Positions 1 to 48,822 of a DNA stretch of 48,822 nt are shown here, piece after piece. Position 1 is the first letter of the stretch. Each line of letters begins with the position of its first letter. The DNA comes from a virus. Taxonomy: Duplodnaviria; Heunggongvirae; Uroviricota; Caudoviricetes. The notes beneath the pieces are model-generated. The model had not been told where the DNA came from, searched no databases, and saw only the letters and a program-made list of their open reading frames with translations. Location of the stretch: the IMG/VR virus record IMGVR_UViG_2541047788_000006; one strand, written 5' to 3'. Both the position numbers and the translations under genes were made by a program.

Positions 1-1284
1 TTACAGACTTCTTGAAGGTTGCGCAGCTGTTACAACACGCGGTTGATCTTCCGCGGCATCTTCCAGTGCACTTAAATCACGGTCTCTCACTTCTGGCATT
101 TTCAGCGCAGAGATTAAACCAATCACTGAATATGCCATGATCATAATGGCGATCGGATACCAGGATTCCGTCATGGTGCAGAAAATACCCGCCAGGATAG
201 GACCAAAACCGGAAGCGATAAGACCACCAATTTCTTTAGAAATCGCCATCCGGGTAAAGCGGTTTTTACAGCCGAACATTTCTGCCATGGTAATGTTTTC
301 CAGAGCAAATAATCCCAGCACCGCACAGTTATGAATCACAATCAGTGCAACCATAATGGTGCTCGGGGCATAGCTTTTATCTACGATGATAGAAAGCATT
401 GGCCACGCCAGCACAATCGCAGAGGTATTCATAATAATATACGGGATCCGGCGACCTATTTTATCGGATAACCAACCAAGGAACGGAATGGTCATAAAGC
501 CGAGAATCGAACTGATCATCAATGCATCTGTTGGAATTGCTTTGTTAAACAATAACGTCTGCACTAAATAGCCTGCAAGGAAAGTCTGAATTAAACCGGA
601 GTTACCAGCCTGACCAAAACGCAGCCCTGTTGCCAGCCAGAAGGATTTGCTCTGGAACATGCTACCAGCAGGTGCAGGTTTTGCTGTCGGTTGGTTGCTG
701 TCGTTAACCTTCTCAAAGACCGGGCTTTCTTTCAGATTCATACGCAACCAGATAGCAAAGACCATCACGACAACGCTCGCCAGGAACGGTATACGCCATC
801 CCCACGCAAGCAGTTCCTCTTTACTGAGAATGAAGAACATAAAGGCCCAGATTGCCGTTGCGCTCAAGGTTCCGCAGTTAGTCCCCATAGCAACAAATGA
901 GGAGATAATTCCGCGCTTACCTTTTGGTGCATATTCCGCCAGCATCGTGCCGGCACCGGAAATTTCCGCGCCTGCCCCCAGCCCCTGAATAATACGCAGC
1001 GTCACCAGCAAAATTGGCGCAAACACACCAATTTGTGCATAGGTCGGCAGCACACCAATTAAGGTAGTACAGATCCCCATCATAGTGATGGTAATAAAGA
1101 GCACTTTTTTACGCCCGATTCTGTCGCCCATTTTGCCGAAAATAAATGCTCCGACAATACGCGCCACATAACCTGCACCGTAGGTTCCCATTGCCAGAAT
1201 TAACGCCATTGCCGTTGATGATTCAGGAAAAAATATTTCATGAAACACTAACGCTGCGCCGAGCGAATATAACTGGAAATCCAT
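1..1284 (-). CDS. ydfJ: MFS-family metabolite:H+ symporter, apparently 5'-truncated at the prophage junction
   Basis: 427-aa ORF with MFS signature (GDRIGRKK loop, multiple TM segments); the N-terminus begins inside the first TM helix when compared from memory with ShiA/KgtP-type transporters, suggesting ~25 codons are missing. Stop TAA at 1..3. Confidence 0.8.
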   Translation of the reverse strand: MDFQLYSLGAALVFHEIFFPESSTAMALILAMGTYGAGYVARIVGAFIFGKMGDRIGRKKVLFITITMMGICTTLIGVLPTYAQIGVFAPILLVTLRIIQGLGAGAEISGAGTMLAEYAPKGKRGIISSFVAMGTNCGTLSATAIWAFMFFILSKEELLAWGWRIPFLASVVVMVFAIWLRMNLKESPVFEKVNDSNQPTAKPAPAGSMFQSKSFWLATGLRFGQAGNSGLIQTFLAGYLVQTLLFNKAIPTDALMISSILGFMTIPFLGWLSDKIGRRIPYIIMNTSAIVLAWPMLSIIVDKSYAPSTIMVALIVIHNCAVLGLFALENITMAEMFGCKNRFTRMAISKEIGGLIASGFGPILAGIFCTMTESWYPIAIMIMAYSVIGLISALKMPEVRDRDLSALEDAAEDQPRVVTAAQPSRSL

Positions 1285-2036
1285 AATTCACAGGTGTTTT
1301 TTCCCATCCTGTGGTTTCCTTGGCGTTTTCTAGGTTTTTTCAGATAGTTGCATTTTTTAAAAAGCATCCTAAGTTCGATCTCAGTGTCTATCTGGGGCCT
1401 ATTTCTGTCCCATATATGCCCCAAAAAAACTCCCCAACAGATAAGTAGTTTTTTCATGGATTTATGCGTAAAATCAAGAACGGCTGGAAATCATTCAATA
1501 CTCACACTATCGAAAAATTTACCAGCCAACCGCAGCACGTTCTTGCATAAGGCGTGTCTGCGGTTTTTCAACTATTCAGATACATCACTCCCATCACATT
1601 CATTCCTCCGCATCAAAGGCATATAGGCTATATCACCTTGATATTTTTCTTCTTCAGATAAAAACTGTTATCTATGTATACTTTTAAACCCAATCCGTGT
1701 AGAGTCTCTGCATAAGATAGTTTGCAGTTGCCGCTTCAGCTTGCGCCATAAACCGCCTGATTTTTGCTGCCACCTGTTAGCATTCCTGTATACCTGAAAC
1801 GACAATGTTTATCTACGAACTTTAAGAACACCCAAGATAAAAATTGTCAACTATATCATATATAACACATTACTAATTCGAGGCTATATGAACAGCATAC
1901 TGATAATCACTTCTCTCCTTATCATATTCAGCATTTTTAGTCATGCCCTAATAAAATTAGGGATTGGCATATCCAATAACCCAGACAAAACCGATGTATA
2001 AGCCAACATATCCTGAATCAGACATACAATATCGCA

Positions 2037-2303: not shown

Positions 2304-3076
2304 TATAATAAACTTACTTTTTTATCATTTTTCCACTTTAACAACATTTTGCTCCACTTTTCCACGACCAAACAACTTGAAATCTGGTTAAAATAACACG
2401 CAACACTATTCTTCTTCCTTGAGTCCGCCCGGAACTCGAAAAACAAACCGAGTTAAAGCCATTTTTCACAAAATCGATTTTGGGTCTCACCAAAATTACG
2501 GGGTTGCATACGCATTCGTTTATTTTCGAACGTGTACATACAAATATGTACAAAAATAATCAAAATTATTTTCTGAGATGCATTATGATATGAACACCAA
2601 TTTCGTATAGAATCTCACTATGTCTCGAATTTTTGCTTACTGTCGGATATCAACGCTGGATCAGACCACCGAAAATCAACGCCGGGAAATCGAAAGTGCA
2701 GGTTTTAAAATCAAACCTCAGCAAATAATCGAAGAACACATTAGCGGCTCAGCAGCAACCAGTGAGCGTCCTGGTTTTAACCGGTTGCTTGCTCGCCTGA
2801 AATGTGGTGATCAATTGATTGTGACAAAACTGGATCGCCTTGGTTGTAATGCAATGGATATCAGGAAAACAGTGGAACAACTGACCGAAACAGGTATCAG
2901 AGTGCATTGCTTAGCATTGGGGGGCATTGACCTGACCAGTCCAACAGGAAAAATGATGATGCAAGTAATTTCAGCAGTCGCTGAATTTGAACGAGACCTT
3001 TTACTTGAACGCACTCATTCCGGGATAGTAAGAGCCCGCGGCGCAGGGAAACGTTTTGGTCGACCACCTGTGTTAA

Positions 3077-4271
<1,195 letters not shown>

Positions 4272-4506
4272 TTAAATGAAGAACAGAAACAGGTGGTATT
4301 CGAACGAATTAAGTCAGGTGTAAGTATAAGTGCCATTGCCCGGGAATTCAAAACCTCGCGGCAAACCATTTTAAGAGCCAAAGCAAAACTTCAGACACCT
4401 GACATATAAAAAATAATCTCGGTGTGAGATGCTTTACGTCTTCCAAGCCCCCTTCCTTGCCGTAAATGGAAAGATACATCTAATTATAGAATTTATATGT
4501 TTTACC

Positions 4507-36345: not shown

Positions 36346-37467
36346 AGCCTGCTTCTCCTTGCCTTTCGGCTCGTAAGAGGCTAACCTACATGTGTCTAGC
36401 ATGAAATTGGCCTCAGATTAATGTTAAGCGTCTTGCAGGACGCGTAATGTTAACTGGGGCTTTTCTCTATCTGCCTTTGGTGTTCATGCCCGAGGCAGAT
36501 AGCCTCAAGCACCCGCAGCCATTCTACTTAACTACCGTTACCTCGCCAATATGAAATCAGTCAGAAAGGCGATCCATAAGAACAATAGCAAGACAATAAA
36601 TCGCCATTACAGCCGTAATAGCCAGCGCACATTTGAGAACCAGCACCACAACCTCCTGTATTGGACGTAGACCAGTCCTGATGAATATGAGGCTGTCTCG
36701 TCAGTGATTCAATACAACTATTGGGTATAGTTTCTCTGATTTTTTCTGTGGAAATGGGGCACAACCACTAGTCACCACCAGCACTTCTTTTAATACGCAA
36801 AGTCCGACACAAGCTAACCTTCTAGTCCGCTTTGAGCGAAAAACAGCCATAATTTAGTGCCACGTATATAATGATAGAGCTATTCAAGCTAGCAATTCAC
36901 ATGTAAAAATTCAGAGGGTAGAAGCACATAGTTATAAATGTTGGCTCCATCGACAAATTGCGGTCTCAAGTACATTTATTAATGTTGCCCCCGCATTAAC
37001 AAATCATCAAGGTGACGACATGGACGATATTAATATCAGCCTCGACGAACTTAACACTATTGATTTATCCCCCTTAATCCAGAGTAAGCTGCCAGTTACC
37101 TGCTTTGATATCACAAAGTATCTTTCTAGCCTAGGTGATGGAAGAGCGGAGATAAGACTGCTAACCCATATTTGCGGTTTTCACTTTCGTCCCGAAAATC
37201 CACAGGTACCATTTGGTCCGTGCTTTCAAAGCAGCCAAGGTAGATCTGCAATTCCGGATGACATTAACGGGTTGTCGCTGGAGGTACTTTCTCAATTTTG
37301 CCCGACGATAGAGCTACCCGAACTTCAAGCTCGTATTGCTGATACACTTTGGGTTCGTAAAATTGGTGGAATCCGTTTTCCTTTGCTGGCAGTCCGTGCT
37401 TATTATGCGTCCAGTATAGCTATTATGACATCGCAAGGGACGTGGGTTAGTGCTTTAGAACGCCTAG

Positions 37468-38662
<1,195 letters not shown>

Positions 38663-40224
38663 CTAGAGCGTGCGCTTAGGCTGTGTTGTTTTTTTCGAAA
38701 GAATACTGATTTCAGGGATGAATTTGATCAGCTTTCGGCACATCTACTAGCAGAGTATGAACGTACCAGAGAACAAGGCGATTCACCTTATCCGCTGCGA
38801 CTCCTGCAACTCGATATCGACTGTAAAGTGAGTGAGCCATCTTTTATTGCCCAGGAACTCCTGTTTCTGACAAAAAACTATCTGGCTCAAAAATTATTTT
38901 CATTTGCCGTCGATGCCTGTAAAACCGCAATCACGATTGCGAATAGGTGCTGTGACAGAGATACACAGTTTGAATTCTGGCGGCTTCTTGCCGATACACA
39001 TCTGGAAGAGTCAAAATTCCAAGATGGCGGTATGATTTCGGCAGCCTGCATGCAGAATGCTATTGAAGCACTGGCTAATATTCCAGGAACCCGAATAGAA
39101 CGTCTTGCGCTGTATGAAGAAATGCGTGATTACCAAATCGAATCCCGTCACCAGATGTCTATCCTTCAGTCTCCCCCTCAAGATATTAGTGAGATTGTCC
39201 ATCAAGCCAAGAGTCGGGTAGTCGGAAGAGATATGTTTGATATGGTTTTCAGACTTGCGATGCTGGTCTGTCGGCCAACCAGCATTGAGAGACTTAAGGC
39301 TCAAGCAATAGAACAAAAGGCCAACAGCATAGCTTGGATGTTTGGATCAACACATATTGATCATGAGGGAATGACACTTGCTCGCATACCCGCAGGATTG
39401 GGGATTGATGATGCAAATGGGGCAGTTATTTGGCCCATAATGATGACGAGAATGCGTATCGACCATGAGTTGGCAGTAGCTGGGCAAATTATTCCTGCTA
39501 CAGATGAGATCACAATGAAATATCCAATCTCGGAGGCGTTTTTTCGCGATATGTTCATCAATCATCCCTTCATCCCGTTTGGGCATGAAGAGTTTTTCAT
39601 CAAGGGTATGGTTTGCGGTTTCAATGGAGATTTTATGACGGCATGCCACGTGTTGATTCCCCAGATCGAAAATAGTCTGAGATATGTGGCTAAAATTAAA
39701 GGTGAGGAACCATCGCAGCTTCACGGGGACGGTTCGCAAGAGCGAAATGGACTCAAGGGATTACTAGATAATCCACTGATTATTGAAGCTTTCGGCGTAG
39801 ACATAATTGGCAATCTTCAGGCCTTACTGGTAGATAAAATCTATGGTGATTTACGAAATCAACTAGCTCACGGATATGTGCCTGCCGGTTACTACAATCA
39901 ACCTCCCTGCATTTTTGCATGGTGGCTTGTATTGCACATTCTAATGAACCCTACGGCGAGATACTGGCAAGCCACTTATGGCCAAGAGAGTGAGGCTCAG
40001 ACTTAAAGTGAATAAGTTTACGAAGTTGGCACTTCCGGATGCATGTCCATATGAGTTGAGGCGATTTGGTTAATAAGGTTGAGTGCTGCTGAAATTATTC
40101 GATGTCCGCTTTTGGCACAAAGCGGACAACCACGCCAGATCTACCCTGTGCCATGAAAAATGAGAATGTCAATTCACTCCTGAACTAATGCTTTTTAATC
40201 TAGTAACGTCTAAAATACCTAACA

Positions 40225-47255: not shown

Positions 47256-47507
47256 ATGAGCGAAGTAATCATGATTGTCTCTCCCGGCAAATGGGTATCC
47301 GAAGAGCAGTTAATTGCGCTGAAAGGAATAAAAAAAGGTACGTTAAAAAAGGCCCGGGAAAAATCGTTTATGGAAGGAAGGGAATATAAGCATGTCGCTC
47401 ATGACGGTATGCCATGGGATAACAGTCCATGCTTTTACAACCTGGAAGAAATTGATCGCTGGATTGAGCGCCAGGCATCAGCAAGACCAAGACGTCATCT
47501 TACTTGA
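47256..47507 (+). CDS. xis: excisionase-like protein
   Basis: 83-aa basic protein immediately upstream of the integrase; assignment mainly by position. Confidence 0.55.
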   Translation: MSEVIMIVSPGKWVSEEQLIALKGIKKGTLKKAREKSFMEGREYKHVAHDGMPWDNSPCFYNLEEIDRWIERQASARPRRHLT

Positions 47508-47526: not shown

Positions 47527-48822
47527 ATGAGAGAAGTTGAAATGAAATATCCGACAGGCGTGGAAAACCATGGAGGGAAATTACGTATCTGGTTTGTTTA
47601 TAAAGGCGTAAGAGTCAGGGAAAACCTGGGGGTTCCTGACACAGCAAAAAACAGGCGCGTTGCAGGTGAGCTACGCGCCTCTGTTTGTTACGCAATAAAA
47701 ACTGGTGTTTTCGACTATGCAAAACAGTTTCCCTCCTCACGCAATCTGGAAAAATTTGGTGAGGCCCGACAAGATTTAACCATAAAAGAACTGGCTGAAA
47801 AATTTCTGGCACTGAAAGAAACTGAAGTCGCAAAAACATCACTCAACACATACCGTGCCGTCATCAAAAATATCCTGAGCATAATCGGTGAAAAAAATCT
47901 TGCCTCATCGATTAATAAAGAAAAATTACTGGAGGTTCGTAAAGAGCTACTGACTGGATACCAGATCCCCAAAAGTAACTATATTGTTACACAACCAGGG
48001 AGATCGGCTGTAACTGTAAATAATTACATGACAAATCTTAACGCCGTGTTCCAGTTTGGTGTTGATAACGGTTACCTGGTAGATAACCCGTTTAAGGGGA
48101 TCTCGCCATTAAAGGAATCAAGAACCATTCCGGATCCTCTTTCGCGGGAGGAATTCATCCGTCTTATCGATGCGTGCAGAAATCAGCAAGCCAAAAATTT
48201 ATGGTGTGTTTCTGTTTATACTGGCGTTCGCCCTGGTGAGCTGTGTGCACTTGGATGGGAGGACATAGATCTGAAAAATGGAACAATGATGATCAGGAGA
48301 AATTTAGCAAAAGACCGTTTCACGGTACCAAAAACACAGGCGGGAACCAATCGGGTCATTCATCTTATTAAGCCAGCAATCGACGCTCTCCGGAGTCAGA
48401 TGACATTAACGAGACTGAGCAAAGAGCATATCATTGATGTTCACCTCAGAGAGTATGGCAGAACAGAAAAACAAAAATGCACCTTTGTTTTTCAACCTGA
48501 AGTGTCAGCGAGAGTAAAAAATTATGGTGACCATTTTACCGTTGACTCAATAAGGCAGATGTGGGACGCAGCGATAAAACGTGCCGGACTCCGCCATCGA
48601 AAATCATATCAGTCGAGACATACTTATGCCTGCTGGTCGCTGACAGCTGGTGCTAACCCGGCATTTATAGCAAACCAGATGGGCCATGCAGATGCGCAAA
48701 TGGTATTTCAGGTATACGGAAAATGGATGTCTGAAAACAATAATGCACAGGTAGCTTTGTTAAATACACAGTTAAGCGAGTTTGCCCCAACCATGCCCCA
48801 TAACGAAGCAATGAAAAATTAA
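47527..48822 (+). CDS. int: tyrosine-type phage integrase
   Basis: 431-aa ORF; C-terminal catalytic region with R...HxxR...Y pattern (SRHTYACWSL...HADAQMVFQVYGKWM); stop TAA at the window end; start may be 47542 (MKYPTG...). Confidence 0.9.
   Translation: MREVEMKYPTGVENHGGKLRIWFVYKGVRVRENLGVPDTAKNRRVAGELRASVCYAIKTGVFDYAKQFPSSRNLEKFGEARQDLTIKELAEKFLALKETEVAKTSLNTYRAVIKNILSIIGEKNLASSINKEKLLEVRKELLTGYQIPKSNYIVTQPGRSAVTVNNYMTNLNAVFQFGVDNGYLVDNPFKGISPLKESRTIPDPLSREEFIRLIDACRNQQAKNLWCVSVYTGVRPGELCALGWEDIDLKNGTMMIRRNLAKDRFTVPKTQAGTNRVIHLIKPAIDALRSQMTLTRLSKEHIIDVHLREYGRTEKQKCTFVFQPEVSARVKNYGDHFTVDSIRQMWDAAIKRAGLRHRKSYQSRHTYACWSLTAGANPAFIANQMGHADAQMVFQVYGKWMSENNNAQVALLNTQLSEFAPTMPHNEAMKN

Follow-up and report, generated by a model that had tools for sequence, protein, structure and literature searches.

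A nearly full-length lambda-like relative of the Qin prophage splits the transporter gene ydfJ at an attachment site already known from Escherichia coli

Among the lambdoid prophages of Escherichia coli K-12, e14 (at icd) and Rac (at ttcA) integrate site-specifically near one end of a host gene, and both supply a replacement coding sequence by which the host ORF is kept complete (PMC6379469). The integration of Qin at the 5′ end of ydfJ was described in a 2019 paper as causing the loss of the promoter and a truncation of 28 codons (PMC6379469), ydfJ has been reported as the Qin insertion site in the strains W, K-12, B and Crooks (PMC3032704), and a 46.8-kb lambda-like prophage of strain SE11 was located 'between ydfJ and rspB' (PMC2608844). 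In the annotation of MG1655, the 'cryptic prophage Qin' occupies positions 1632277..1652745, the first of which is the equivalent of position 1276 of the window analysed here (the whole stretch of 48,822 nucleotides, IMG/VR record IMGVR_UViG_2541047788_000006). The ydfJ gene of this strain (b1543) is listed as encoding 427 aa, whereas a 36-aa ORF named ynfP (b4534), which maps between the intQ pseudogene and rspB, is made of 28 ydfJ codons followed by MDF and five phage codons.

The locus in the window follows this described arrangement closely. The attL (ctgGAAATCCATAATTCAcaggtg) and attR (cttGAAATCCATAAATTCAagcg) of K-12 Qin are identical to the sites reported here, the K-12 attL matching window positions 1232-1330 across the junction with no difference, so that ydfJ is cut at the same nucleotide. 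K-12 also shares the 427-aa ydfJ remnant and the 5′ fragment adjoining rspB, together with the left-end genes ynfT, ydfK, pinQ and tfaQ and the 3′ end of int. On the other hand, the K-12 prophage is a remnant of 20.5 kb with an intQ pseudogene broken by IS2, whereas the element in the window spans about 47.6 kb; it carries genes for terminase, portal, capsid, tail and tail fibre as well as J, with head, tail and terminase genes complete, and int and xis are intact, but pinQ and a DUF4209 gene are each interrupted by an IS5 copy. The first IS5 copy (3077-4271) lies within the pinQ invertase gene and is flanked by the target duplication TTAA (3073-3076 and 4272-4275), the 164-aa ORF at 2620-3114 being the truncated 5′ part of pinQ, a gene of 591 bp in relatives lacking the IS. 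The second copy (37468-38662), inverted with respect to the first and flanked by the target duplication CTAG (37464-37467 and 38663-38666), splits the DUF4209-domain gene, which encodes 595 aa in strain FDAARGOS_1289. Since these inverted copies of 1.2 kb each, 33 kb apart, flank the entire late region, homologous recombination between them could invert it. The prophage, whose int and xis are intact, is a nearly full-length lambda-like relative of Qin; that a member of the Qin family truncates ydfJ is correct but already known, an ordinary event at a well-documented site. We regard it as practically certain that positions 1276-1290 are the attL of a temperate Qin/mEp460-type phage, integrated by its Int into an attB inside ydfJ and splitting this gene.

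The host part of the junction is a minus-strand ORF at 1..1284 (hereafter ydfJ′), which begins MDFQLYSLGAALVF in the ORF list. Protein alignment identifies it as the 3′ 427 codons of ydfJ, with 100%/99% identity to residues 29-455 of the intact protein. The product is an MHS-family MFS transporter, and the host gene is chromosomal, parted in the window from the upstream rspAB. In prophage-free E. coli (HS30-1, an ST131 strain and WP8-S18-ESBL-07), intact ydfJ has 1368 bp and encodes 455 aa, and it starts 57 bp downstream of rspB within the co-directional run rspA-rspB-ydfJ-ydfI. Alignment with this intact protein reveals that 28 codons, MTIEKHERSTKDLVKAAVSGWLGTALEF, are absent from ydfJ′. The ORF is clearly homologous to MFS/MHS transporters, with Pfam assignments to MFS_1 (E = 2e-37) and Sugar_tr, and BLASTP aligns intact YdfJ to K-12 ShiA with 33% identity over 417 residues (E = 2e-76), pairing ShiA DWYDFLLYGITAALVF with YdfJ EFMDFQLYSLGAALVF and extending upstream to YdfJ residue 15. 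ShiA, itself an MHS-family MFS protein, has in common with YdfJ the motif (D/E)-(W/F)-x-D-F of the first transmembrane helix (TM1). The MFS_1 profile begins, at profile position 2, on residue 21 of intact YdfJ, which indicates that ydfJ′ starts in the middle of TM1; Met29 falls about nine positions into that helix according to the profile, and the hydropathy of YdfJ is positive from residue ~12 to 50. A PDB sequence search with intact YdfJ, run to anchor TM1, gave no match at E <= 1e-5. Compared with ShiA-type MHS transporters, the window copy lacks the first half of the TM1 helix, and a complete TM1 with its conserved motif is missing from the ORF, as residues 1-28 include SGWLGTALEF. An earlier note on this DNA had proposed an ORF start inside the first helix by alignment to ShiA, which BLASTP, Pfam and hydropathy agree in supporting, and a loss of about 25 N-terminal codons, close to the 28 counted here. 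It had also suggested that the ATG may be junction-derived, and this part does not hold: the start codon (1282..1284, minus strand) is the native Met29 codon of intact YdfJ and sits in the core shared by both recombination partners, being found in attB and also in attP, so it was not made by the junction.

Whether this remnant retains any activity is a further question. Two codons before the ATG, the phage arm provides an in-frame TGA (1288..1290, minus strand; cac ctg TGA att ATG), a layout repeated at the interrupted loci of E. coli and E. ruysiae, and because of this stop the ORF could not be extended upstream. Unlike in e14 and Rac, the phage arm thus supplies a stop in frame, and the N-terminus of YdfJ is not replaced. 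It could nonetheless be thought that translation of ydfJ′ starts at Met29 and yields a working transporter, with 11 helices or altered in another way, in which case the gene would be modified rather than inactivated. In favour of this idea are the open ORF, the 99-100% conservation of the protein with respect to intact alleles and the annotation of ydfJ′ as a CDS in K-12, although such conservation would be equally expected from recent or recurrent integration. The phage-supplied sequence upstream of the ATG (AGGATGGGAAAAAACACCTGTGAATT) presents no Shine-Dalgarno motif at normal spacing, its purine-rich stretches at -26 and -21 being too distant, and a consensus scan of the minus strand found no sigma-70-like promoter within ~770 bp upstream of the ORF. 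Moreover, half of the invariant TM1 motif is gone. An altered but working transporter seems to us very unlikely. From the loss of half of the conserved TM1, the lack of a normally spaced Shine-Dalgarno and of a nearby promoter-like site, and the separation from the rspAB promoter, we infer that ydfJ′ is non-functional, although the 427-aa ORF is still listed as an ordinary CDS in MG1655 and many RefSeq records, which counts against this reading of the sequence. The annotation of the remnant is inconsistent: MG1655 has it as a CDS without qualification ('MHS family MFS transporter YdfJ') and FDAARGOS_1289 as a PGAP pseudogene, the 100%-identical ydfJ′ being flagged 'incomplete; missing N-terminus', and the product names in RefSeq match lists do not show which of the two states applies to the other records.

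The conservation of the gene across bacteria bears on a second alternative, namely that the native protein has 427 aa and starts MDFQ, the 455-aa form being a lineage-specific extension, with no truncation at all. The annotation of the 427-aa ORF as a normal CDS in MG1655, and by PGAP in many genomes, would speak for it. However, in a scan that took one genome per bacterial species (80 loci), 77 loci match YdfJ from residues 1-7, with proteins of about 455 aa and SGWLGTALEF invariant immediately before MDFQLYSLG. These loci come from many Enterobacteriaceae, and their genera include Citrobacter, Enterobacter, Leclercia, Klebsiella, Raoultella, Kosakonia, Serratia, Buttiauxella and Salmonella. 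A start at residue 29 was seen in only three of the 80 (E. coli, E. ruysiae and a Caldithrix-labelled contig), and in all three phage DNA adjoins the ATG. The uninterrupted 455-aa gene is present in 2,009 complete E. coli genomes, the homology to ShiA and the MFS_1 profile both extend upstream of Met29, and the DNA adjoining the ATG is phage DNA that brings a stop in frame. Alignment with intact YdfJ and the species-wide loci refute a native 427-aa protein, to which we leave hardly any probability; intact orthologues are of about 455 aa rather than the ~427 aa that would have undermined the earlier note. As for the Caldithrix-labelled contig (SMXE01000224.1, 'MAG: Caldithrix sp.'), it bears a ydfJ′ 100% identical to that of E. 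coli and a Qin-type attL junction, and contaminating E. coli DNA in this metagenome-assembled genome is almost certainly its origin. In E. ruysiae (NZ_CABVLQ010000001.1), a second Escherichia species, ydfJ is interrupted by the same prophage junction, indicating that the ydfJ integration site is used beyond E. coli. In summary of these comparisons, the 427-aa ORF is a truncated form of ydfJ that starts exactly at an internal methionine codon by coincidence.

The boundaries of the attachment site emerge from an alignment of attB, attL and attR with the attP of four phages. The attL core region, GAAATCCATAATTCA, occupies 1276..1290 and occurs only once in the window. It comprises a block of 11 bp, GAAATCCATAA (1276-1286), identical in attP, attB, attL and attR, followed by the phage version of a stretch of imperfect homology, TTCA (1287-1290), which attB and attR read as ATTCA. 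The empty site (attB) reads ataactgGAAATCCATAAATTCAagcgcag, the attL of the window and of K-12 ataactgGAAATCCATAA-TTCAcaggtgt, the attR of GN05505, FDAARGOS_1289 and K-12 gactcttGAAATCCATAAATTCAagcgcag, and the attP of the four free phages cttGAAATCCATAA-TTCAcagg. In other words, attP and attL have AA-TTCA whereas attB and attR have AAATTCA, and since the phage version of this AA/AAA difference is found in attL and the host version in attR, strand exchange must have taken place to the left of the difference, within the 11-bp block. At the first position of the block, the attL of E. ruysiae has A in place of G, and if this A is the host allele of that species the exchange region narrows to 10 bp, as judged from this one locus. 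The attB itself lies within codons 27-32 of ydfJ. When a query of 301 nt centred on attB was compared with 5,426 complete E. coli genomes, the site was uninterrupted in 2,009 of them (37%) and the query was broken in most of the others. The break point is identical in the large majority of genomes without an uninterrupted site, and in an evenly spaced sample all 18 core-side partial matches stop at position 162 of the query, with which the core ends. Positions 1-2400 of the window were matched in all 5,426 genomes, many of which lose similarity at base 1290, about six bases past the ATG. All interrupted genomes sampled lose their similarity to the empty site at one and the same base, which argues that the truncation is no chance feature.

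At the opposite end, the window carries an excisionase gene, xis (47256..47507, plus strand; PGAP coordinates transferred from the collinear FDAARGOS_1289), directly upstream of a full-length tyrosine integrase gene of 426 aa (47542..48822, plus strand; identified by Pfam and by its match to mEp460_ev081), which figures in the ORF list in a longer version of 431 aa starting at 47527. The integrase shows the lambda-type (heterobivalent) architecture, with an N-terminal arm-DNA-binding domain (Arm-DNA-bind_2, E = 5.5e-24) and a C-terminal tyrosine recombinase catalytic domain (Phage_integrase, E = 3.9e-18), and it shares 99% identity over 426 aa with that of phage mEp460_ev081. It is predicted to catalyse integration and excision at the ydfJ att site, as indicated indirectly by the break point common to the large majority of genomes without an uninterrupted site and by the uninterrupted attP of four sequenced phages. 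The window ends exactly at the int stop codon, so attR falls outside and was read in relatives. Along its whole length, the window is collinear with FDAARGOS_1289, from which it differs, once its two IS5 copies are set aside, by 4 mismatches in 46.4 kb, and both FDAARGOS_1289 and GN05505 match the window ends at 100% identity. In both strains the attR core starts 38 nt past the int stop and is followed by an 84-nt ydfJ 5′ fragment and then by rspB, the 84-nt piece reading on into phage DNA as a 36-aa ORF, MTIEKHERSTKDLVKAAVSGWLGTALEFMDFKSHEC. Given the 100% identity of the ends in these relatives, we infer that attR and the ydfJ 5′ piece would likewise lie beyond the int gene of the window, and the sequence expected past 48822 is tttaatatttatcaaatagttaacac(t/g)catgactctt GAAATCCATAAATTCA agcgcagtgccc..., with the ydfJ start codon in reverse complement some 76 nt beyond it and rspB thereafter. 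The comparison with prophage-free E. coli proposed in the earlier note has thus identified both the intact ydfJ and the att core. The core is found at 1276-1290, where that note had placed an att boundary (near 1285), and not elsewhere, and the missing 5′ segment turns up in FDAARGOS_1289 and GN05505 beyond the integrase, as it had predicted.

A synthetic attP was then built by joining the phage arm of attR, the core and the phage arm of attL (184 nt in total), the latter arm being the non-coding, phage-derived stretch at 1291..1389, which is contiguous with the integrase-side arm in free phages. This predicted attP proved to be uninterrupted, with an identity of 97.8-99.5% along the entire 184 nt, in the sequenced genomes of four phages, mEp460_ev081 (LR597641.1), PhiR42_1 (PV340562.1), HannyBb (PP925841.1) and Tritos (OV696610.1), which share the same core and arms, and also in three IMG/VR contigs. 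The four are free phage genomes, whereas the window holds the integrated form with its IS5 insertions; mEp460_ev081 covers 90% of window positions 1291-25000 (the left half) with 97.7% identity. Around the attP core, the search for arm-type sites gave only one weak pair of 21-nt direct repeats with 76% identity, one on each side, which are candidate arm-type integrase binding sites. Their sequences are TGCCCCAACCATGCCCCATAA and TGTCCCATATATGCCCCAAAA (1408-1433 in the window; 1995-2015 and 2202-2222 in locus L010). A junction produced by an IS-mediated rearrangement or by illegitimate recombination ending in ydfJ, an origin that the IS elements carried by these prophages (two IS5 here, IS1 in GN05505, IS2 in K-12) might suggest, has almost no likelihood, since all interrupted genomes sampled share the breakpoint base, including those in which the neighbouring prophage sequence is different, int and xis adjoin attR, no IS end lies at the junction and, decisively, the two arms are contiguous across the same core in the four free phages, which refutes it.

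Integration by site-specific recombination is therefore the reading we retain. On this reading, a lambda-like phage of the Qin/mEp460 type integrated through Int-mediated recombination into an intragenic attB, the exchange taking place inside the 11-bp identity GAAATCCATAA of attP and attB. The ydfJ gene was split into a promoterless 3′ part of 427 codons and an 84-nt 5′ part, the latter now some 47.6 kb away, just past int and adjoining rspB (the ynfP ORF of K-12), and the rspAB promoter came to lie ~47.6 kb from ydfJ′. Regarding the transcription of the intact gene, consensus scans of the uninterrupted locus found neither a promoter-like nor a terminator-like site in the interval from rspB to ydfJ, and a hairpin resembling a terminator, with a 12-bp stem, lies directly after the ydfJ stop, before ydfI (3967-3994 in locus L001). 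The absence of signals on one side and the hairpin on the other fit a co-transcription of ydfJ with rspAB from the rspAB promoter; the hairpin also suggests that rspA-rspB-ydfJ may be transcribed as a unit of its own, without ydfI. The position of the hairpin corresponds to just beyond the left end of the window. A literature search on the function of rspAB-ydfJ-ydfI (L-gulonate) found nothing citable. Wichelecki et al. reportedly assigned, in 2014, the cluster of E. coli CFT073 to L-gulonate catabolism.

A last question to be addressed is whether the split is permanent. As deduced from the att sequences, precise excision by Int and Xis would restore attB and an intact ydfJ. Since int and xis are intact, and attL and attR keep the bases needed to rebuild attB (attR with the host AAATTCA), the prophage might even act as a reversible switch ('active lysogeny'), its excision rejoining ydfJ to rspAB and restoring an operon for sugar-acid uptake and catabolism under particular conditions. 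This is a speculative and very improbable scenario, in which, if true, the insertion would not be a dead-end gene disruption.

In any case, the present analysis adds little to a documented integration site, namely a block of 11 bp for the strand exchange, an AA/AAA difference limiting the crossover on one flank, and the free phages with a matching attP. For genome annotation, the split means that what many E. coli records, among them that of K-12, list as an ordinary transporter, the 427-aa 'YdfJ', is the tail of a prophage-split gene, and 'YnfP' its orphaned head. Studies on rspAB-ydfJ-ydfI should consequently use a strain with an empty site, for which about 37% of the complete genomes qualify.
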